From: Saccostrea echinata
Lineage: Eukaryota
Assembly (NCBI RefSeq): GCF_033153115.1
Contig: NW_026889779.1
Coordinates: forward strand, 22,010,001-22,074,000
Direction: 5' to 3'
DNA length: 64,000 nucleotides
This document shows positions 30,001 to 49,900 of the stretch, in pieces. The first letter of the stretch is position 1; each line of letters starts with the position of its first letter. Under the pieces are notes generated by a model. It did not search any database. It saw only the letters and a list, made by a program, of their open reading frames with translations, and was not told where the DNA came from. Made by a program: the position numbers and the translations under genes.

Positions 30001-31237
30001 GGTCTGATACACTCCAAACTTTTTAGTACACCTATAACCAATACTTGCAAGGATAGTTTAAATTTTTTATAAAAGCCATAAAAATGCGTAACAGGAGTAA
30101 CAGCCTAGTAGGTAAGTAAGACGATTAAAGAAACCATCGGGACGGGAAATACAGTGCAGGTAAGGATCCACAATTTTAGATTAAACGGGGAGTTGTTTTA
30201 TACTGAAAAGTCCATAATTGCATTTCAACACATTTGTTAAAATAATTATAACGGAATAGGTGAATGACTGTTGGCGATTTAAATTCATATTTTGTTTTAA
30301 TGCATTGAATAGTAAATTGACTAATAAGTCACTTGTTTTATAACTTGTATTGGTGAATGAGCAGGCCCTGGTCGACGGTGACCATTTGCGTTGAGGTACT
30401 GCCGCCGTCACCATGGTTCTTGGCACCCCCATTGGTGGCGGTTGCAGTTCCATGTTTACTCGTGGTAGACACGAGTATTCATGGCCCTTGCAAGTGGCGT
30501 ATTCCGTCGCACCTCAACGCAACTGGAGGAGTGCAACACATATTCTTACGCTCATTCCATTGTTTATCCTATTGCACATGTAAATTGAAATTCAGGATTT
30601 GAATTTGTGCATTGGCTTGTAATTGACAAGCAGTTGACTTGATTGATATTGAATTGATTGATTGATTGAATTTGATTGATTGATTGATTGAACTTGATTG
30701 ATAATTGAATTGGTGACGTTCATGCACTTGTGACCTACCCAGTGCATGATCCGCCCGATTTGGGTCGTCACATTTGTTGTATTGATTGTTGATTGTGGGG
30801 CAGCCCTGTGGTAGCCCCAGCAAATTGATCACCGCGGCCAGAAGCGCCAAATTAAACAAGCAAAATAATATCTGTTGTTTGTTTGATTAATAGGGAATCT
30901 GCAATAATACCACTTACACGAGCCTGGTCTCGGATAAGTGAGTTTATTTCAGTAACCCTAGTAATATTTATCTATTCCGTATAAGTTACGTACATTCGGA
31001 TAAATATAGATTTTCACCCTTAGTCACAAGCTATCATTCCGGATAATTGAGGTCCATTCGTATATAGTCTAATAGTAAGTTCTCTTCTACCTCCTTTCTC
31101 AAAGAATCGATTAAACGGTAAGGTCTTGGAAAATTTTTGGGAGTTAAATTGTGGCAATGTTTTAAATTTTACCCACCCACCCTCCTCTTGTTTTTAGAAC
31201 AAATACTGCTGCTTTTTGTTATGTCATTGTAGCTGAA

Positions 31238-31537
31238 GACTGCCTGCTTCGTCCAGCTTCCACAAAAGCCTATGTCGCGGTGGTGGATTATGGGTGTTCG
31301 CATATTCCGTAAGGACAGCTTGCTTGGTCCAGCACCTACATCAGCCTACGTGGCGATGGTGAATTTTGTGTGTTTGTGTATTCTGTAAATACAGCCTGAT
31401 TGATCCAGCGTCCACATCAGCCTATGTGAAGGTGGTGAAATCTGTGTGTTTGCGTATTCCGTGATGACTGCCTGCTGGGTACAGCGTCCACTTCAACTGA
31501 TGTCGCGGTGGTAATTATGTGTGTTTGCGTATTCCGT
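31238..31537. repeat. Diverged tandem repeat, 4 x 76 bp
   Basis: Units start at 31238, 31314, 31390 and 31466 (GAC.GCCTGCT..TCCAGC..CCAC..AGCCTATGT..GGTGGTG..TATTCCGT). Confidence 0.85.
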
Positions 31538-31935
31538 CGCACCTCAACGCAACTGGAGGAGTGCAACACATATTCTTACGCTCATTCCATTGTTTATCCT
31601 ATTGCACATGTAAATTGAAATTCAGGATTTGAATTTGTGCATTGGCTTGTAATTGACAAGCAGTTGACTTGATTGATATTGAATTGATTGATTGATTGAT
31701 TGAATTTGATTGATTGATTGATTGAACTTGATTGATAATTGAATTGGTGACGTTCATGCACTTGTGACCTACCCAGTGCATGATCCGCCCGATTTGGGTC
31801 GTCACATTTGTTGTATTGATTGTTGATTGTGGGGCAGCCCTGTGGTAGCCCCAGCAAATTGATCACCGCGGCCAGAAGCGCCAAATTAAACAAGCAAAAT
31901 AATATCTGTTGTTTGTTTGATTAATAGGGAATCTG

Positions 31936-31938
<3 letters not shown>

Positions 31939-32016
<78 letters not shown>
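31939..32016. repeat. (TA)n microsatellite
   Basis: Uninterrupted TA run. Confidence 0.98.
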
Positions 32017-36900: not shown

Positions 36901-38716
36901 TGAGCAGATAGCCCACCAATATTTTTCATCTCAATTAGAGATTTTTATCTCTTGATAACGAACGATAGATTTCAAAGATTCTGATGTCAGTGCAAATATT
37001 TGTATGCATGTTTTTTAACATTTTACATGACCAATTCTATTCGGATATATAGCATCGTAGAGATTTCAAATCATATTTATAACAGCTTCAGAATATATGT
37101 TATTTTTTTCAGTAACATGATTCTCCAATATATGTGGTTAGATGTACTATATGTATTATACGGTCAATTAACTACAGCTTTAGTACCCAAAATGTAATTA
37201 GATTAAGTTTCATTGAAGAATTCAATGAAATACCGAGTATGAAGAAAGATAACTCGTATACATTAAAAATTGTGCTGTGCAAATCCCTATCTCACAAGTA
37301 AAAGAGAAGAATTTATGTGGAAAAAAATATTTGTTCCATCTGGTTCACTTGTTCGGGGTGATATTTTAATCGACATTTAATGTATTTAAGTAAATCGCAT
37401 ATATCTCACAGAATGGAATATTATAGGATATTTATTTTAAATAATTTGACATAAAATATTTTTTGGAAAAAATCAATCACCGTTTTCCTGTTTTTATTAT
37501 TATTATTATTATTAAAATCTACTAAAGATGTTTTGTGTGTCTTGGTTTTCATTAAGTCTGAGAGTAAGAAAACTTAAAATGATTGCACTGATATAATTCT
37601 GCTGAATACAGCTATAAAATTCATATCTCATATTCATTTAAAGTTTTCTATTATTTTATTTAAAGGTCAGTTGTATCCAAAATCACAAAAAATCTTTGAT
37701 TTCCATATGCTTTTTCCCATTTGGGCTAAAAATCAAATGTAAAAAATATGTATTTAACAGGGAACTAGGCGAGAGAAAGTTTTATATAATGTTGTTAATT
37801 TTTACAGGGTGGAGGTATGGCAAAATTTACAATATGATAGTTGTTACCAGATTTTAAATTTTGCATATACTTTCTTCCAGAAAATTTTAGATTTACATTA
37901 TAATACTTAAACGAAATACTATACCACATGTATCTCTCTCTATCTTGAAGGGGTTTTAAAACCTTGAAAAGATTATAATGTAATAGTAATTTTATTTTAT
38001 GATCTTTTACAATTTTTCAGTGCATAAATACATGTACTAGTTATTGTTTGTACTCATGTACAACAGTTGTATGTTTAGTTCCTGGGCACATGTTGTAATC
38101 AATCTATTTAAAAAAAAGAAACCTGAAGTATATAATTCCATGTACATTTGTTGATGAATTAGTTTTATTTCGAAATTATTTTTATGAAATAACAACAACA
38201 TATTTTAATACTGTTTTTATGACATGTGGTTCTATTATTTGAAGCATAATATTTCCAGGAACAAAATACACAAATACAATTCTTTAGGCCTATATTGATC
38301 AATACAGAGAAAAATTAGGAAATTAAACGAGACTTACCTTGGTAAAGGCGAAGTTTGATTCCAATTATTGGAGTAAATAAAAGGCACTGTAGAGATAAGG
38401 TGAATAGTACTGCGCAGCCGCCAAGTCATTGCTTCAAAGCTAAAATTTTTTGGGTTGATAGATTTGCAACAAAACATCAAACCCAAATTCATTTCACTAA
38501 TAATTTCAAATAATACATTCACCACCTGCAGGGTGGGAGGGAGGCACCTTATCTCTACAGTGCCTTTTATTTACTCCAATAATTGGAATCAAACTTCGCC
38601 TTTACCAAGGTAAGTCTCGTTTAATTTCCTAATTATTTTTCGTAAACGTCACTTCCGAGATAATGTGAATCTTTAAAGCACAACACAAAAAATTTTTCAA
38701 ACTGAAATCAAATTCT

Positions 38717-39898
38717 TTATTTTAATTTCAAAACAGCATTTGCATACTTATCATCATTCAGCACAGGTTTGTCATAAAACTTTCTGAAGGTTTCGACATT
38801 AGACCAACCTACTTTGGACAAAATATCATCGACAGGAACAAAGTTCTCTTTTGCTTTAGATGCTGATGCAGATCTAACACTATGAGCCTTAAAAATAGTA
38901 GTATCAACACCTGCAGAACACATCACTGTTCTTATCCAACGGGCAACAGTATCTCTTGATACTTCCTTGTGTGGTTGTACATAACTGATAAACAGTGAAT
39001 CACACTTATTTCTAATTCTTGCAGTCCTTGATAAGTATTCACATAAAACAATATATACACAAAGCCTCCTATCTGGAGGATATGATTTCAAAACCATGTC
39101 AGACATACTACTGTTAGGTCTACATGTTTTCAATAAATCACTAAAAGTAAAAACAAAGCTATTTTTTCTTCTCGTCATATTACCAAGTTTCATGCATGAA
39201 ATAGTTTGTACTCGACTTGCACAAATTAAACTAATTAACATAACTAACTTCAGTGTCAAGTCTTTCAAACTTAAGTATTTTACAGGTGACAATTTTCTCA
39301 AATACTTGATAACAATAGATGCATCCCAAGTATGTACATATCGAGATTTTGATGGTCTCAAATTAAAAACACCCTTCATAAATCGTATAACAAGTGGATG
39401 ACATCCAACAGTAAACCCATCAAAAATCAGTCCAACAGAAGATAAAGCCCCTCGGGCAGTATTAATAGCACTATACCCTAAACCTAGGCGAAAAAGATGT
39501 GCTAAAAATTCAATAACAGTTTCTATAGTTGTACAAAATGGATCAATCGATTTTTCACTACAGTACTGAAACCATCTCGTATAAAATGTTTTATATTGTT
39601 TCTTGGTTCCCGACTTCCATGATGCCAAAAGGATCGAGGCTGCTTGATGAGAAATTCCTCGTTTTTGGTACTGCAACCGGACAATCGACATGCCATCAGC
39701 ACTAACGAGTCTTTCAGAGGATGCTGCACATCTGTGCCTGGAAGTGTCAACAGATTGTCCATCACAGGTAAAATCACCGGATGATCCACCAGTTTTTCTA
39801 ACACACGATTGAACCACGGCTGTGTTGGCCACACTGGAGCCACCAGTACACACTCTGCTTGGTCCTGACAAATCTTCCTCACCACACGTCCAATGAGG
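38717..39898 (-). CDS. DIRS ORF3: tyrosine recombinase
   Basis: N-terminal W..GTKKQY/YSAINTARGALS/HPLV.RFMKG block; catalytic R (ASRVQ), HSVR and GWS...TFRKFY. Overlaps the 3' end of ORF2 in another frame. Confidence 0.94.
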   Translation of the reverse strand, partial: PHWTCGEEDLSGPSRVCTGGSSVANTAVVQSCVRKTGGSSGDFTCDGQSVDTSRHRCAASSERLVSADGMSIVRLQYQKRGISHQAASILLASWKSGTKKQYKTFYTRWFQYCSEKSIDPFCTTIETVIEFLAHLFRLGLGYSAINTARGALSSVGLIFDGFTVGCHPLVIRFMKGVFNLRPSKSRYVHTWDASIVIKYLRKLSPVKYLSLKDLTLKLVMLISLICASRVQTISCMKLGNMTRRKNSFVFTFSDLLKTCRPNSSMSDMVLKSYPPDRRLCVYIVLCEYLSRTARIRNKCDSLFISYVQPHKEVSRDTVARWIRTVMCSAGVDTTIFKAHSVRSASASKAKENFVPVDDILSKVGWSNVETFRKFYDKPVLNDDKYANAVLKLK

Positions 39899-41619
39899 CT
39901 GAAAGGAGGATTAAGATAACCATAAATGTTTGCCCATGAAAAACTAAATGCATTAACATAACGGGCATCTGGATCTGGATGCCAAGAACAATATACATCA
40001 ATCTGCTTATTCAACCTTGTTGCAAACAAATCAATTTCAGGTTGTTCCCATCTTAAAACAATTTTATGGAACACAGATTTGCTCAACATCCATTCTATTT
40101 GATCATCAAATTTGCGCGACATCATATCTGCTATCAAATTATCTTTACCAGGAATGTGCCATGCACTTAACCACAGATCCCTATTCATACTCCATAGCCA
40201 AATTTCTTTTGCAAGTTTATCACATTTTTTAGAACTAATACCACCCATGTTATTGATGTAGGAAATAGCTGTGGTATTGTCCATAAATAATTTGACATTT
40301 TTATTTGTTACATCAGAACAAAAGCACTTTAACCCCAAAAAGCAGGCTAATAATTCTAAGTAATTGATATGATTTTCAGATTCATCTGTTGTCCATCTAC
40401 CCCCTGATTTCAATTCATTCATAACAGCACCCCATCCAAGATGAGAAGCATCAGAAGTTATTGTAAGATCATAGGGTTCATGCAAAATTCTTCTAACTGA
40501 TGAAGAAATATTAGAAATCCACCAATCTAATTCTAATTTCATTTCTTTTGTTATGATCATGAAAGCATCATAGTCATGTTGTGATTGTACAAGTGCATCA
40601 GTTTTTGCTCTTTCCATATCACGATAAAACAGCTGACCAAATTCTACTGCTGAAAAACTAGCCACGACCAATCCAATGACCTTTGCAACTTCTCTAATTT
40701 TTTCTCTTGATTTTGTTTGTAATTTTTTACATGCCTCTAAAATAGATTCCTTTCTTTCTTCAGTAAGAGAAACTATCATCAATTCAGAATCAATAACATT
40801 TCCTAAGAAAATGATTTTTGTACTAGGTGTGAGAACAGACTTCTCATAATTGACTACAAACCCTAGACTCTCTACTAGGGCTAAAGTTTCAGAAACATGA
40901 TCTAAACACTCTTTAATACAATTGCCAATCAGTAACGAGTCATCAATATACCCAATAATGACATGTCCTAATCTTCTAAGTGTTGCAAAAACAGGCTTCA
41001 GTAGTTTTGTAAAGAGTCTAGGTGCACTAGCTAACCCTTGAGCGAGACAAGTATACTGATAAATCTTATTTTTCCATATGAATCTAAGAAACTTTCTATG
41101 TTCCTCTGCCACACTGACACTATAGTATGCATTGCTAAAGTCAACACTAGCAAAATAACAACCTTGAGTCACTAAATCAAGAGCACTCTCAAAAGTATCC
41201 ATTTTAAAATGGTGATACACAATGTTTTTGTTAAATTCTTTCAGGTTCAAAATGACTCTATAACTGCCATTCTTTTTAGGTCTAGTGAAAACAGTGGAAA
41301 TGAAACCATCACTAAGGTCTACATTTTCAGACAATTCTTCAATTACATTCATATCTAATAAAGATTCAATTTCTTTGTCAATCACACATGATTCAGCTGA
41401 ACTAAAACGTGGCTCAAAAGGTTTTGAATTTTGTACAGGAATTTTATCATCTTTAAATTCCAAATGACAACCTTTCACAATATCTAATATACTTTTATCT
41501 GATGTTAACTCTTTCCATTCAGAAATGAAATTTTTTAGTACACCTGCTCTAAATTCACATACCTTTTCAACTACTTCTGGAGGCGACTCTGCAAGCCTCT
41601 TCGTTGGTAGTTTTTTGAA
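39523..41619 (-). CDS. DIRS ORF2: reverse transcriptase - RNase H - adenine methyltransferase-like domain
   Basis: RVILNLK, HFKM, QGLASAPRLFTK and YIDD (RT); SDASHLGWG, HINYLEL, DNTTA and HIPGKDN.IAD..SR (RNase H); IDLFAT..PDP..NPPFSLI (MTase). The frame is open from 41619 and includes the conserved FRAG.L..F...W..LTSD segment upstream of the listed GTG at 41478. Confidence 0.95.
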   Translation of the reverse strand, partial: FKKLPTKRLAESPPEVVEKVCEFRAGVLKNFISEWKELTSDKSILDIVKGCHLEFKDDKIPVQNSKPFEPRFSSAESCVIDKEIESLLDMNVIEELSENVDLSDGFISTVFTRPKKNGSYRVILNLKEFNKNIVYHHFKMDTFESALDLVTQGCYFASVDFSNAYYSVSVAEEHRKFLRFIWKNKIYQYTCLAQGLASAPRLFTKLLKPVFATLRRLGHVIIGYIDDSLLIGNCIKECLDHVSETLALVESLGFVVNYEKSVLTPSTKIIFLGNVIDSELMIVSLTEERKESILEACKKLQTKSREKIREVAKVIGLVVASFSAVEFGQLFYRDMERAKTDALVQSQHDYDAFMIITKEMKLELDWWISNISSSVRRILHEPYDLTITSDASHLGWGAVMNELKSGGRWTTDESENHINYLELLACFLGLKCFCSDVTNKNVKLFMDNTTAISYINNMGGISSKKCDKLAKEIWLWSMNRDLWLSAWHIPGKDNLIADMMSRKFDDQIEWMLSKSVFHKIVLRWEQPEIDLFATRLNKQIDVYCSWHPDPDARYVNAFSFSWANIYGYLNPPFSLIGRVVRKICQDQAECVLVAPVWPTQPWFNRVLEKLVDHPVILPVMDNLLTLPGTDVQHPLKDSLVLMACRLSGCSTKNEEFLIKQPRSFWHHGSREPRNNIKHFIRDGFSTVVKNRLIHFVQL

Positions 41620-42710
41620 TCAGATGAGAAGGATGCAGCATTCGAGTAGGATCCACGACCCCTTGCAGCTCCTCGGACAAAGCGTCCACGTGATCGTCCC
41701 CTCATAAAGCGACCACGGAAGCTCCCTCTATATCCGATACCAATTTTGTTGCTGATTTTGGAACAATCTGTGATGTCTTTTACAGTTTTAAGGACATCGT
41801 CACCAAACAAATAGTCTGTATACTTTAAATTATGACTACAAAGGTGAGTATATTCACCCTTCATATCAGGTTTCATAAATTCTCTACGCAACATACACAA
41901 CTGTCTGTTGGCATGCCCCAGCAATGCCAATGATTCCATAGCATTTCCCAAAAGGTCTAAAATCTCGGGATTGTCACACTTACCGAGCAAATAAGTCATT
42001 TTAGTGAGTGCACAAGCACCCTTGATCAACGAAGTCTGAACATTTTGCATCTTCTTATCGGAAGATTTTGTAGTTGGGCTCAAAAAATCCCAAACCATTT
42101 GGTTAGTTTTCACAGTCACTAATGCTGAACAGTTTTCAGGACGATTTGTCGTTTTCAGAAGTTCATTATATCGTTCTTCCTCGATTCCCTCTCGGAACCA
42201 ATCTGTCACGAGATTAGCTAGTTCATCATCAATCGGTTTATCACAAGTCTCTTTAACTTTAAGTTTCTTACCGGCATTGACGTACTTGTTTTCCGTATCA
42301 GTCAGAATCTCGTTTAATGCGCGCTTCCTCGAAGCCGCTTCACCGGAAGTACCCGGTTCGTCCGGGGTATCGTCTTGACGATCTTCATATTCTTGGTAAT
42401 CATAATCATACAGATTTTCTAGCTCTGTCATACGATCGTCTTGTTTCTTTTGATTCTCTTGAATCGCTTTTAATATGTTGAGAATCTCATTCTCGTTATT
42501 TGGCGCGGAACTATCATGTCCTCCGCCATGACCACGAGAACATGTGGAAGTGCCAGTCGAAGTCGACGAACTCGACGACGAACGCAAGTTAGACGGTGTC
42601 TTCTCCGAAGACGATGATTTGTTCGGGGCTTTTTTCTTTCCCTTGACCGGTGCTTTATCATCGTCAGGGTTAGGAACGTCCGCCATGACGCACGTGGTTT
42701 GAACTTTCAA
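41571..42710 (-). CDS. DIRS ORF1, Gag-like protein (first ATG at MADVPNPDD)
   Basis: First ORF of the element. Low-complexity N-terminus, coiled-coil-like segment, RPENC..L....N..VW and YLFGDD motifs, RG-rich basic C-terminus. Confidence 0.85.
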   Translation of the reverse strand: MKVQTTCVMADVPNPDDDKAPVKGKKKAPNKSSSSEKTPSNLRSSSSSSTSTGTSTCSRGHGGGHDSSAPNNENEILNILKAIQENQKKQDDRMTELENLYDYDYQEYEDRQDDTPDEPGTSGEAASRKRALNEILTDTENKYVNAGKKLKVKETCDKPIDDELANLVTDWFREGIEEERYNELLKTTNRPENCSALVTVKTNQMVWDFLSPTTKSSDKKMQNVQTSLIKGACALTKMTYLLGKCDNPEILDLLGNAMESLALLGHANRQLCMLRREFMKPDMKGEYTHLCSHNLKYTDYLFGDDVLKTVKDITDCSKISNKIGIGYRGSFRGRFMRGRSRGRFVRGAARGRGSYSNAASFSSDSKNYQRRGLQSRLQK

Positions 42711-43790
42711 AACCGATGAAAAAATATCTGACCACGTCAGACAAAATCGCCCCCGAAAACTGATCTGACCACGTCAGAAAAGATAATGAACTCTGAAAAA
42801 GTTCTAAGAGTATATTGACCTCGTCAATATGTAAAAATATATCAAAAATGATCGAGCAAGTAAGACCACGTCTACTCGCTCCGGCTACTTGCAGTTCAAT
42901 GACTTGGCGGCTGCGCAGTACTATTCACATTATCTCGGAAGTGACGTTTACGAAAAATAATCGTGAATATATCTAAACAATTAAATGCTTTCTTTGGTTA
43001 ACGATGTTAATACGGGAACTAATGTTGCAGCTGTTGCAGAAAAAAATGCATAACCCGTACTGACAAAGAAAGAAAGATATTTTATTGTTTATATTTATAC
43101 ATGTATCTGTACAAATAATCATCTAAACAAGGATTAAGTAGATTAAATAATGTATTATTGATATTTACGTCATTGTACGTTTCATTGATGGAACAGCCAC
43201 TATACTGTACATGTGATATGCTTAGCGGTGTTTACTGACTGATGGTTTTCATAAGAAATATAGGGGATAATATTCAGTGGCTGAAAATGTAAATTGACTA
43301 TAACTGAATGACACACAAAATCAGTCGATGCTTAAAATTAAATTCAAATGTATAAAATTTTATTAACTTTCGAAATTAACTTTATGGACACAGAATTTTA
43401 TTCCTTGAGTTGAAAAAGCATATTGGACAAGAGTACCGAATCTAAAAATATTCAGAATTATTGCAATTAAGCATGACAACCATATTTTTTTTATCTTTGT
43501 CAAATCTGGCAAAACCATCATTCTATCATATTTTAATGTTTCCAATATATTAAAAAAACAATTGCATTTCAATAGGCCTATAGATCTTTCTGTTTCTTTA
43601 TTGAAATATCTTAGTTGTTTTGTGTGATAACAGATAACGATATCAATTTTGTGCGACACCGACACTTGCGTTATCTTAAACCTTTAGGAATGAAAAATTG
43701 ATTTAACCGATTATCTGGAATACTGTGATCGAGTGTATTTTGTTCTGTGAATGTAGTTTTTTTTACTTCCGTATTGGTATATTTTGTTTC

Positions 43791-45038
43791 ATGATGTTTC
43801 GAATTTTCATGTATATATTTTCTATATTCATCACTGCTTCAGGTAGGAAAATTTCTCCTTAGTACCAATAAGCAAAACCAATATGAATGATCTACTTTTA
43901 AAATTCCATATTTTAAATACTTATAAAATTCATTGTGAGCTTCACCATCATGAGATGTAATTATTTCTCATTTGTCTCACCAGTTTGTCTAATAAACCCG
44001 GTGTAAGTGTGCTTATTTTAGTTTTCTATCATATTCAAACAGAAAGTAGTACTACATTATCTGGTGCAGAAATTATCTACTTGGTAAAGATTATATTTCA
44101 GTGGCTATCAATATTAGTTATAATATCTATGACAATACAATCGATCTGTATTTTGTGCTAAAAGTATCATAAATTTCCTTCAATATAGATAATGATAAGA
44201 ATCTTTTCGACTAGGAAAATTAAAATGATAGTTTACTTACTCCATGTTCCTTGCTACATAATACGTAAGTTTCAATGTTCTATTTCTCTTTGATAGATGC
44301 TATACTTTGTTACCAATGCTCAGACGCCAAAGCAGAAGGAACATGTAGGCATGACAACAGTGGACTCCTGTCAGATAACCAGGGTATTCAAAACAGGACC
44401 AATATCACGGACACAGAGTTCAATACAGAGTTTACATATCTGAAGAACTGTACAAAGAGCTGGGGAGAGCAATGTCTGATTGAAAATATACGGGAAGCAG
44501 GTAACATATTGAAAAGAACAGTTCTACCAGCAGTTTGATCGACTTGTCAACCATCTTCTGTCTGTGCTGATATTTACTGAGGTTCTTCTATAAATTTCAG
44601 GAACATTTGTTGTCTTCATGTCTGTCTTTGATAAGATTGAGAAATGGTCAATGGCTTAATCATTTATTTATATTCAATATCTTTAAAGGTTGGTTGATTT
44701 AGATTGACAAAATAAAAGTTATACAATATTCCTGAACTTCTTTCCAAATTTCAGGAAGTGGAAAAGTGATGTCTTTCATTAGAGGATGTACAAATGGAAA
44801 AGTGTTCTCCCTCAATGATTTCCCTAATAGAACAATAGTGTCAGATAATCAGACGACATGTGCCTACAGACCGGAGAGTGGAAAAGTTGTCGTCTGCTTG
44901 ACAATTTGTAAAACAGATCTATGTAATGGCCCACAGCCTCCATTACACGATGGAGCATCTTCAAATCACTTTTGTTCTTTACTGGCGATACTGATGCTAC
45001 TACTTGTGAATAAGGTGAATTGTTTCAGTGAATCTTAA
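43791..45038 (+). CDS. Ly6/uPAR three-finger (quiver/sleepless-like) GPI-type protein B
   Basis: Exons 43791-43842 (signal peptide MMFRIFMYIFSIFITAS), 44297-44500 and 44755-45038, joined by phase-1 GT-AG introns. Ten Cys (LCYQC...CKTDLCN) and a hydrophobic C-terminus. Confidence 0.88.
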
Positions 45039-46993: not shown

Positions 46994-49900
46994 ATGATGT
47001 TTGTGTTCTTTCTTTTATTTTCCGCTAACATCTATACTTCAGGTACGACAATGTTTCCTTTGAATAGTGTTTGATCAATTGAGCAACTAAATTAAATACT
47101 ACATTGCTTTCTAAGAACAGATATTTGCATAGACCGCATTTACCATGTTAAAGAAATTTCGGTTTTAAGGAACCTTCAGGAAACCCATACTAGACTCTTT
47201 AACTATGTTTCTTATAGGGATGTAAAGAATTCTTACTATAAGGAAGCAAAATTCGAAGTTTACGTGATTTTCTTATAAAACTTAGTACCACAGGCTAGTA
47301 ACTGGTAAATTGTAGTGGCTATAGAGCCGTTATCAAAACAATGTATCGGTATTCTATTTTTACATGTATCTCACTTCAACCGAAAGTACAAGTACATGTA
47401 AATCTTGATTGACTTGATGGCATCTTAAAATGAAATTAAAAAAGAAAAATATTTAGCTCACAATAATTCTTTTTGGTAATATATTCTTGTTAATGAATAC
47501 GTATTTCGGACACATGTATAAAGTCTACACTCATTTACAGGGGCAATACTTTGTTATTGGTGCTCGGATTTAAATGCTGAAGGATACTGTAAAAATGACA
47601 TAGAGGTGCTCACAATCAATAATTCTTGGAGATATCCGAATCTTTTTAAGAGTTGTGCAAAGCACGATTGGGGAGACCAGTGCTCAATTGAAACAGTTCG
47701 TGAAGCAGGTATTAATTTAATAGAATTATTTTGTATGCTATACCTTCTTGAACTTGAACTTGAACTTTATTCTCATAACTGACAAAACAGTGAAGAGAAG
47801 ATATGTACAGTATAATAAACAGAAAATATTACATGCCTGAAGAAGGGGTAACAGAGTATGTCAACCAAGAGCGCCAACTCTCTCAATTATAATATCTAAC
47901 AATTTACAAATTTTGCTAAGTTGATTAGTATTGGTTACATTAAAGAGCATTTCAAATTTCAAAACATTTGGATTCAAATGAAAATACTTTGACAAATACA
48001 TAACTCTTGAGTTCTTTATAGACACATCAGTACATTTAAATAAATAATGAAATTCATCCCCAATTTCGTTGCTGTTACATAATTTACAAATTCTATTTTC
48101 TCTAGGGATATTAAACCATCTACCAGTCTCAATTGGTAATTTTGTATTCCCAGTTCTAAATAAACATTATTTCTTGGATTGTTTAGGAGGCAAATTCAAC
48201 AAATAGTCTTCAAAGATTAATGATTTTTTAAAAATTCTATAGTTCAAACCTTTAGGGGAAGTTTGTACATCACTAAACCATGTTTGCTTAAACTGACCTA
48301 AGAGAGTGGTATATACCTTATTTTTTAGCCAAGATATATTAATTGAATTTTCATACCACACATAAGTCAATCCACATTCATTTAAAATTTTCTGAACAAA
48401 ATCACACCATGGATTCTTACATATTTTCAATGCACATAAAAGTTTTGCAGACAATTTAGAGCTCTGAGCATTAATAAGTTTACCCCAAAATGAGATCATT
48501 CTAACTTTGATATCAATTAATAAAGGGTGTCTACCAAGTTCTCCGTACACCATAAAGTTTGGTGTTGATGTTTTCAAGCTTAGAAAATGTTTACAAAATT
48601 TTAGGTGTAATTCCTCCATTAGTTTAGTATTGTGAAAACCCCACATTTCACATCCATATAGAAGTAATGGTTTGATAATTTTATCAAACATGTCTAATTT
48701 ACAATCCATTGATAAGTTATGTTTTCTACATCTACCAATAACACTATACATTGCTTTAGTAGCTTTGTCATATAATTCTTTGGTATTTAAATTGAAAGAA
48801 TTACTTTTACAAAATGTAACACCTAAATATTTAAAGTTGTCAACTATATCAAGCTTGGAGCCTTCAAATGTAAAAGAGCTATTATTTTTACCTCTACCAA
48901 ATATTACAACTTTTGTTTTCTAACTATTAACCTTAAGGTGCCATTTCTTGCAATATTTAGAAAATGTATTTAGCATGTACTGAAAATCATCTGCGTTTTC
49001 TGATAACAAAATAGTATCATCTGCATATAATAAAACAAAAAGCTGTAAGTAGAGATTTAGTTCTCTCTCGAGTTTTTCTGACAAACAAGGTAAACCCTTA
49101 GCTTTGTTTCCAGATAAAAATTCCTCAAGGTAATTCAAGTACAATGAAAATAAAAATGGTGACAAATTCTCCCCTTGCCGAACTCCTATACTACATTCAA
49201 ACATTTCTGAACTTATTCCATTAACTACTACTTTTGATTTAATACCTTTATACATGTTGGTTATAATCTTAAAGCATTTTCCATCAATATTATTTTGTAA
49301 AACTTTATTCCATAGTCCGACATGCCAAACCGAATCAAATGCTTTCTCAAAATCTATAAATGCACAGTACAATTTCATTTTATGTCTTCTAAAAAGTTCT
49401 ACAAGAGAATATAATGAAAAAATATGACCTATTGTACCCATACCTCTACGAAAGCCTGCTTGATTTTCTAAAATGAGTTGTACATTATCAGCATATGAGT
49501 TTAATCTTTCATTAATAATTGCAGTAAATAATTTTCCTAGACAACTCAGCAGTGTGATAGGTCTATAATTCTTAGGATCAGTATTGTCCCCTTTATTTTT
49601 GTATACTGGGATTATGTTTCCACAAGCCCACTGAGTGGGTATTACACCAGAGTCAAAAATTTTGTTGAACAATTCAGTGTATAAATTCAGCATGCAATCA
49701 CATGAATTTTTAATATATTCATTAAAGATTCTATCATCACCACAAGCCTTGTTATTTTTCAACATATTAATACTGTTGCGCACTTCATCATGTGTTATTT
49801 GTTGGTTAATTTCATGATTGAGCTGAACATCAGCTAAAATATCAAGCTCTTCTTGTGTTAATACTGTGGGCTCTGACTCTTGTTCATTAAAATTTTCGTT

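Follow-up and report, generated by a model that had tools for sequence, protein, structure and literature searches.

DIRS1-like retrotransposons, to which the mollusc elements AcaDIRS1/2 belong, are described as carrying three open reading frames (gag; reverse transcriptase, RNase H and methyltransferase, RT/RH/MT; and tyrosine recombinase, YR), inverted terminal repeats, an internal complementary region, ATT termini and an AAT junction, and in Mollusca their pol and YR frames lack a long overlap (Piednoel et al., 2011; PMC3266345); the element analysed here shares these features, the methyltransferase being a candidate domain. The passages available from papers on DIRS elements, this one included, say nothing on the translation of pol or YR and describe neither a slippery site nor an internal intron; likewise, no gag-pol slippery site or internal intron of a DIRS1-like element is described in the literature searched, whose scope stopped short of key reviews and the primary Goodwin and Poulter papers. 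Within the DIRS order, ribosomal frameshifting has been proposed as an expression route for the YR frame of Ngaro (Poulter and Butler, 2015, as quoted in PMC13003380); in the passage quoted, that proposal concerns the overlap between RT/RH and YR, whereas here the predicted shift lies at gag-pol and the boundary between pol and YR is a splice acceptor.

Gag-pol frameshifting in retroviruses and Ty3/gypsy elements, as covered in PMC5009743, relies on an X_XXY_YYZ heptamer in the gag frame, a pol frame at -1 without an early start, and a small set of heptamers, all of which recur here. Unlike retroviruses and Ty3/gypsy elements, the present element has no protease or DDE integrase, local folding revealed no conserved downstream stem or pseudoknot, and its shifted frame enters an alternative splice donor, so that one shift site would serve two enzymes. 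MMTV uses A_AAA_AAC between gag and pro. Retroviral env is expressed from a spliced subgenomic RNA that skips pol, the unspliced RNA being both the genome and the Gag-Pol message; the present element resembles this in that a subgenomic RNA skipping pol would express the third gene. In retroviruses, however, the donor precedes gag or sits right at its beginning, and env comes with a start of its own or a short leader, whereas here the donor lies past the gag stop; the third gene can thus be reached in frame only by ribosomes that have shifted. We know of no retrovirus or LTR element in which a frameshift upstream of an alternative splice gives two Gag fusions.

An intact DIRS1-like element and its frames

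The minus strand at 42961-38313 of the window (the whole stretch of 64,000 nucleotides of Saccostrea echinata DNA that was analysed) is an intact and recently multiplied DIRS1-like retrotransposon. Its left terminus, with the left inverted terminal repeat (42897..42961, inverted repeats I2 and I9), starts ATT at 42961, where seven of the eight other copies also start to align, there or within 10 nt, one copy being shorter at its 5' end. The internal complementary region (38545..38670, inverted repeats I1 and I9) holds the AAT sequence of the circular junction, and the right inverted terminal repeat with its extension (38313..38431) ends ATT at 38313, an end placed by complementarity to the internal region rather than by aligned copies. 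Inverted terminal repeats, an internal complementary region and a 3-nt circular junction are thus all present, and the reverse transcriptase and tyrosine recombinase lie in separate frames.

The gag frame (ORF1, 41571..42686, minus strand) runs from the ATG at 42686 to the TAG at 41573-41571, with 371 codons and a stop, and ends in a basic, RG-rich C-terminus; it matches no family in Pfam, and is identified as gag by its location and by its homology with the first ORF in sister families. The pol frame (39523..41619, 698 codons stop to stop) is at -1 to gag and opens after the TGA at 41622-41620, one codon ahead of the heptamer; it has no ATG before codon 90 (at 41352), 67 codons past the F of the conserved F-R-A-G segment. 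On both points the sequence-only reading was accurate, having placed the opening one codon before the heptamer and the first ATG behind this segment. The frame encodes a reverse transcriptase (RVT_1, E 3e-21, above the Pfam cut-off), a putative RNase H recognised by its motifs (Pfam gave no match), and a candidate methyltransferase-like domain (Dam, E 5e-4, 20.2 bits, under the Pfam cut-off of 28.1), in which the Asn-Pro-Pro-Phe motif is present. The tyrosine recombinase exon (38717..39898, 393 codons; Phage_integrase, E 4.6e-7, above the Pfam cut-off) is at -1 to pol; its frame opens 4 codons ahead of the acceptor described below, and its first ATG is codon 69 from the acceptor, directly preceding the conserved recombinase core.

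Slippery heptamers at the gag-pol overlap

The heptamer A_AAA_AAC, reported by the sequence-only reading as a canonical -1 site linking gag to pol, is present as AAAAAAC at 41616-41610 of the minus strand, in the gag phase claimed for it, and is kept in all nine near-identical genomic copies (9/9). In a single 46-nt overlap, a slippery heptamer has a chance probability of p ~0.04-0.06, and the main evidence for a predicted shift, which is strong, is conservation across families rather than this one overlap. Two sets of families were compared, one from this genome (G000) and one from metagenome contigs, with only junction-intact families counted; 19 of the 39 families in the genome and 17 of the 46 in the metagenome have no junction-intact copy and lie outside the counts. 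Pol is at -1 to gag in 17/20 families of the genome and in 29/29 of the metagenome. The other three of the 20 read +1 (L052 and L072, single copies, and L109, with three copies); they count against the model, and are excluded from the heptamer and donor counts.

The relation that the earlier reading had proposed to look for in relatives, an in-frame heptamer ahead of a -1 frame, is found within the overlap in 16 of 17 families of the genome and 27 of 29 of the metagenome, against about 2.5 expected per set (2.4-2.6 by two controls in the genome, 2.7 in the metagenome), and with 4 and 3 families, and 6 and 3 families, respectively, in the off-phases; these families share ancestry, so that p-values overstate their independence. 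A_AAA_AAC occurs in 9 families of the genome and 13 of the metagenome, U_UUU_UUA in 5 and 13, and U_UUA_AAC and G_GGA_AAC in one family each, both from the genome. Taken together, these four heptamers occur in the last 300 nt of gag in 43/46 families, as opposed to 7/92 control windows further up gag; in 43/46 families an X_XXY_YYZ heptamer in the zero frame has an open -1 frame behind it. Three families (L083, L159, L164) have no in-phase heptamer and L165 has C_CCU_UUU as its only one, all of which counts against the model. In a tree of the RT, from which 7 families with less than 450 nt of open RT are excluded, the U_UUU_UUA families form a clade (starred) and two other types fall on separate branches; the letters have thus changed while the pattern was kept, and the window's site (41610..41616) is conserved as a class. 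Three of these heptamers rank among the most shift-prone mammalian sites in PMC5009743, where U_UUU_UUA is the HIV site. In 34/46 families the pol frame has no ATG until after the conserved F-x-A-G start; in the other 12/46 a pol-frame ATG lies upstream of it, which counts against the model. Conservation across families supports, as the best reading, the earlier proposal that pol is made as a Gag-Pol fusion through -1 frameshifting, which we consider very probable.

The GAGGC/GCCTC stem named by the sequence-only reading (a 5-bp hairpin at 41580..41599, minus strand) does sit 10 nt downstream of the heptamer, but its role as a stimulator is not supported: its folding energy of -7.1 kcal/mol does not exceed chance, being equalled by 25% of 500 dinucleotide shuffles. 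Nor was a conserved stimulator found among local stems, the structures these folding tests took in (as distinct from pseudoknots and long-range pairing): the mean folding z is -0.3 and -0.7 over 16 families of the genome, and -1.1 and -0.9 over 26 metagenome families, of which 9 lie below -2, a weak group trend. Local folding thus does not support the stimulatory stem-loop of canonical -1 sites, the spacer in the window being 10 nt, and for want of a stimulator the rate of shifting may be low.

A probable intron joining the -1 frame to the recombinase

The Gag-Pol interpretation is incomplete, since a conserved intron, once spliced out, takes pol with it and leaves the shifted frame continuous with that of the recombinase. 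The alternative GT-AG intron (39899..41562, minus strand, 1,664 nt) begins 47 nt past the heptamer and takes out the RT, the RNase H and the start of the methyltransferase-like domain. It has the features of a U2-type intron, with a consensus GT donor (AAG/GTATGT, phase 0 of the pol frame), a pyrimidine tract and an AG acceptor (pyrimidine tract-CAG, phase 0 of the recombinase frame). Between shift site and donor lies a 16-codon linker in the -1 frame (41563..41610), common to both predicted fusions and without an ATG; in 38/46 families, likewise, no pol-frame ATG precedes the donor.

In 46/46 families the best donor is found beyond the gag stop, in phase 0 of the pol frame, as against phases of 56/48/33 in control windows inside the RT, with a median score of 5.8 versus -1.2 in control windows (scored with a weight matrix); the amino acid that follows it may be S, R, C, G, N or T, and the conserved signal is thus one of nucleotides. 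In all 46 families, including 31 with room for more, the donor is no more than 50 nt from the gag stop. Junction-dependent nonsense-mediated decay follows a 50-55-nt rule, and this spacing may spare the spliced RNA from it.

The acceptor at 39899 was found post hoc in the families of this genome and afterwards tested on RNA and on the metagenome set. Serine in the acceptor column is coded AGY in 20/21 families of the genome, as opposed to 26% of other pol serines, although the choice of AGY or TCN is inherited and related families are not independent. In 28/29 families no stop interrupts the recombinase frame over the 70 codons behind the AG, an outcome to which the density of stops upstream assigns 0.001 for each family. 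AG is absent from the main column in 6/28 metagenome families, and in two short-recombinase families of the genome (L084, L095) the scorer's best acceptor is out of phase, both of which count against the model; several families without the main AG have an alternative phase-0 AG 9-135 nt downstream. An earlier candidate acceptor, a phase-0 AG some 228 nt inside the recombinase exon, was dropped, as it is not conserved across families.

The joint 39898-41563 (GT..AG, minus strand), identical to the prior prediction, is found in one raw read (run X24) and one contig (X1). This support is thin, amounting to one of 13 X24 reads and a contig whose RNA status is a guess; run X4 gave unspliced pieces only, and the 34 reads of X23 cover neither splice site. 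An intronless copy, recognised by a gag-side-only match, is absent among 13 genomic matches from a lower-bound search; the joined form is thus seen, if thinly, in RNA and not in genomic DNA. We have little doubt that the splice is real.

Two predicted Gag fusions and competing explanations

Three proteins would thus arise from one start codon. Most ribosomes would read gag and stop, giving 371 aa; a minority would shift by -1 on A_AAA_AAC and translate the 16-codon linker, from which, on unspliced RNA, they would continue into RT/RNase H/methyltransferase (Gag-Pol, ~1,054 aa) and, on RNA lacking the 1,664-nt intron, enter the recombinase in frame (Gag-YR, ~768 aa). The frames, the conserved heptamer, both splice-site phases and, in two RNA-type records, the splice are observed directly; ribosomal shifting, its rate and the existence of the two fusion proteins are what we infer. 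This model as a whole, one -1 shift leading to Gag-Pol from unspliced and Gag-recombinase from spliced RNA, is in our judgement a probable one.

The strongest challenge concerns the recombinase: a -1 shift would still give Gag-Pol, but reinitiation or leaky scanning at an ATG behind the acceptor would yield a free-standing recombinase from the spliced RNA, the in-phase join being incidental. The splice does bring the recombinase frame to ~2-50 nt from the gag stop; a Met four codons past the acceptor starts 24 of 43 homologous recombinases, among the matches listed that reach the acceptor region; and the window has an ATG at codon 69, just ahead of the conserved core. The homologues listed are, however, biased toward proteins having such an ATG, and of families chosen by their RT only 2/33 have one within 10 codons of the acceptor. 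The first recombinase-frame ATG ranges from codon 4 to codon 220, and in 9/29 families it lies past codon 90, inside the conserved part. Reinitiation also needs no single donor phase, yet 46/46 families share one. We regard this route as unlikely, and expect that the recombinase is made mainly as the shift-plus-splice Gag fusion.

For pol, an RNA or start of its own (a second splice, an internal promoter or a non-AUG start), with the heptamer idle, would fit the lack of a conserved stimulator, the early pol-frame ATG of 12/46 families and the other joints possible at low RNA depth; it leaves unexplained, however, the in-phase canonical heptamers of 43/46 families and their swaps to other canonical heptamers, no joint into the pol frame is listed in four runs, and a contig of X4 crosses the gag-pol junction unspliced, so that we hold it to be improbable. 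RNA polymerase slippage on the A6 or U6 stretch, by which a fraction of transcripts would gain a base, could exploit the six identical bases in the two commonest heptamers, but it is independent of codon phase whereas the sites are phase-locked; the runs in U_UUA_AAC and G_GGA_AAC are only three or four long, and no insertion is listed at the site (coverage of one read and two contigs), making it very improbable. That chance mimics these signals is scarcely credible: the genome is A/T-rich, amino-acid constraints (Lys-Asn, Phe-Leu, Val, Pro-Pro-Phe-Ser) could yield look-alikes, a single overlap has a 4-6% chance of a heptamer, and the families are related, but shuffle, off-phase and gag-body controls fall far short of what was counted in both data sets and largely refute this explanation already, and the predicted splice was observed to the base.

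Under the shift-plus-splice model, a large invertebrate DIRS1-like clade, with named relatives from molluscs, a brachiopod, a hemichordate and a crustacean, appears likely to use a stacked switch, in which the shift sets the amount of enzyme per Gag, the splice picks RT or recombinase, and both would be tethered to Gag for packaging, with shifting that seemingly needs no conserved downstream structure. This provides a base-exact, testable account of how the second and third DIRS genes, often without a usable start codon, are translated; if true, it would explain the expression of start-codon-poor genes in a widespread class of animal transposons. It also adds dozens of predicted natural -1 frameshift sites that seemingly lack a classical stimulator, and means that, for these elements, gene models and the annotations in repeat libraries probably assign wrong N-termini to RT and recombinase. 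Among viral contigs, 49 matches to the pattern gave none that was confirmed, and no longer, fused relative of gag was found among 4,330 candidates at E <= 0.001 (proteins of 651-2,000 aa), a weak test either way. In two distant families, gag and recombinase form a single continuous ORF of 1,431 and 1,477 codons, so that a Gag-YR fusion is a form in use in this group.

The element and its gag–pol junction

On its minus strand the window carries an intact element of 4,649 bp (42961-38313), with inverted terminal repeats, an internal complementary region, ATT termini and an AAT junction; gag runs from the ATG at 42686 to the stop at 41571, pol occupies a frame of 698 codons (41619-39523), and the recombinase frame spans 39910-38717, all on the minus strand. 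The encoded proteins match the Pfam families RVT_1 and Phage_integrase above cut-off, and Dam weakly. The element fits a DIRS1-like retrotransposon, and its architecture agrees with the description of this group in PMC3266345. The closest named protein (99% identity) is labelled Saccostrea cucullata, an oyster; further named relatives come from molluscs, Lingula, Ptychodera and Panulirus. The 5' leader holds a 30-nt direct repeat shortly upstream of the gag start, its two copies lying 37 nt apart (42718-42784).

The sequence-only reading had placed a -1 ribosomal frameshift at the end of gag, and its description of the junction is correct: A_AAA_AAC lies in gag phase at 41616-41610, pol is in the -1 frame and open from one codon before the heptamer, and the first ATG in that frame is codon 90. 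The proposed GAGGC/GCCTC stem behind the heptamer is present, but it is an ordinary fold (-7.1 kcal/mol, matched or bettered by 25% of shuffles). More generally, no downstream stimulator is evident in either of the two family sets described below, where folding gives a mean z of -0.3 to -1.1 and strong folds are found in a minority.

Conservation and turnover of the shift site

A search of the window's genome at the protein level yielded 1,636 candidates, of which 150 were scored; 80 of these places, picked by hand because they had long open frames and covered the N-terminus, were fetched and form, with the window, 39 families at 80% nucleotide identity. An intact-junction copy is found in 20 of the 39 families, with pol at -1 in 17 and at +1 in three. 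An X_XXY_YYZ heptamer lies in gag phase within the overlap in 16 of the 17 -1 families, where the rate in the gag body predicts 2.6 and shuffling predicts 2.4; the two wrong phases hold heptamers in four and three families. A separate set, the best 80 of 477 relatives in metagenome contigs (drawn with a query biased toward this clade), forms 46 families; 29 have an intact junction, all with pol at -1, and 27 of these have the in-phase heptamer, against 2.7 expected. The shift site is a real feature, and the predicted -1 frameshift, the hairpin excepted, is well supported by family comparison.

The heptamers of the genome are A_AAA_AAC (nine families), U_UUU_UUA (five), U_UUA_AAC (one) and G_GGA_AAC (one); those of the metagenome set are mainly A_AAA_AAC and U_UUU_UUA (13 each). 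In a reverse transcriptase (RT) tree of 32 rows the U_UUU_UUA families group together in a single starred clade, with each of the two rare types on a branch of its own, so the letters of the site have been replaced several times, each time by another canonical heptamer. Since the families are related, the heptamer p-values of both sets overstate their strength; the phase lock and this turnover are the better arguments. PMC5009743, whose examined part makes no mention of DIRS, counts three of the four types found in the genome among the sites at which mammalian ribosomes slip most readily, and identifies the fourth as the HIV site. The first pol-frame ATG lies downstream of the conserved pol start in 34 of 46 families.

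A probable intron past the gag stop

The junction has a further layer, absent from the sequence-only reading: an intron after the gag stop. Gag–pol junctions carry a strong splice donor 3' of this stop; in all 46 of 46 families the best-scoring donor lies 2-50 nt past it and at pol-frame phase 0, while RT-internal control windows show no comparable phase lock and far lower donor scores. Heptamer and donor are both kept in all nine near-identical copies of the element in the genome, the window's own counted.

A first acceptor candidate failed and was dropped. The second lies in the methyltransferase-like domain, where the Pro-Pro-Phe-Ser codons make up a pyrimidine tract with an AG behind it; the serine of this column has an AGY codon in 20 of 21 families of the genome (26% elsewhere), and the AG is found in 22 of 28 metagenome families. 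The recombinase frame starts at this AG or shortly upstream, often right behind a TAG that doubles as the acceptor, and is open for 70 codons past it in 28 of 29 families, with a chance of 0.001 each. The AG is mostly missing where the recombinase frame overlaps most of pol; families lacking it often have an alternative phase-0 AG further downstream (L049, L061, L081/L093, L088), as does L078, in which the frame does not stay open past the first AG, and in L084 and L095 the best-scoring acceptor is out of phase. Several database gene models, themselves predictions, also join pol-frame sequence to this position, which is only a lead.

The intron, 41562-39899, was predicted and recorded before reads were aligned, for which four of 24 listed runs were used. 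A joint 39898-41563 with GT..AG ends occurs in one raw oligo-dT read of run X24 and one contig of run X1, presumed to be RNA; the match to the predicted intron is exact but thin. Depth in X1 is 16.6 over gag, 27 over the recombinase exon and 0-9 in the intron interior; X4 yields unspliced pieces, one across the gag–pol junction, and the reads of X23 reached neither splice site. No intronless copy occurs among 13 genome matches. An X1 contig jumps 275 nt (38372-38648) from the internal complementary region to the right repeat, with non-canonical ends, and continues into unrelated flank, which probably reflects a template switch or a copy elsewhere in the genome that has suffered a deletion.

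A proposed route to two enzymes from one shift

The fuller finding is a predicted frameshift coupled to an alternative splice. The donor is in phase 0 of the pol frame and the acceptor in phase 0 of the recombinase frame; only a ribosome that reaches the joint in the -1 frame can thus read straight through the spliced RNA. In 38 of 46 families, that of the window among them, no ATG of this frame precedes the donor, so a slip would be the simplest entry into it. Gag (371 aa) would be made from both RNAs, a Gag-Pol of about 1,054 aa from the unspliced and a Gag-recombinase of about 768 aa from the spliced one (sizes computed from coordinates). Both enzymes would then be tethered to Gag and brought into the particle, much as the retroviral Gag-Pol fusion carries its enzymes there. 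The main rival is that the recombinase is made by reinitiation at an ATG past the acceptor: a methionine behind the acceptor is indeed common among called proteins, but it is rare in families chosen by their RT (2 of 33).

Other families vary these parts. In two distant DIRS families, L090 (G000:C3:11105210-11111710) and L107 (G000:C2:14636174-14642674), gag and recombinase are one continuous ORF (1,431 and 1,477 codons), with pol nested in the +1 frame. The L109/L110/L113 family has pol at +1, no in-phase heptamer, gag and recombinase in a common frame and a donor at gag phase 0 that lies 36 nt short of the gag end, from which a plain in-frame splice could fuse the two; no acceptor for it was found. 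This single ORF and this gag-internal donor suggest that the same Gag-recombinase fusion is reached by several routes. In the L083 family and in L101-L104 and L108 the recombinase frame overlaps most of pol: the L083 family has pol at -1 and a strong donor with no in-phase heptamer, and the L102 family has G_GGA_AAC and a recombinase frame of 1,017 codons opening in the gag/pol overlap.

Frameshift and alternative splice are known mechanisms, here predicted in a new variant that is directly testable. Neither a gag–pol slippery site nor an internal intron in DIRS1-like elements is described in the available portions of PMC3266345, PMC6681497, PMC3783388, PMC13003380, PMC4495291, PMC4157794, PMC7192593, bioRxiv 10.64898/2026.05.21.726589, PMC9210276, PMC5009743 and PMC5633606; Poulter and Butler 2015 or primary papers may mention them. 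According to PMC13003380, Poulter and Butler 2015 proposed that Ngaro elements express their recombinase ORF by frameshifting.

Elsewhere in the window, a roughly 1-kb tandem duplication surrounds a short array of 76-nt units (30497-31940). Cys-rich exon-like frames with a hydrophobic tail lie at 44269-45038 on the plus strand and recur about 3.2 kb further on (near 47016-47711); by eye, we take these to be a tandem pair of Ly6/three-finger-like host genes.
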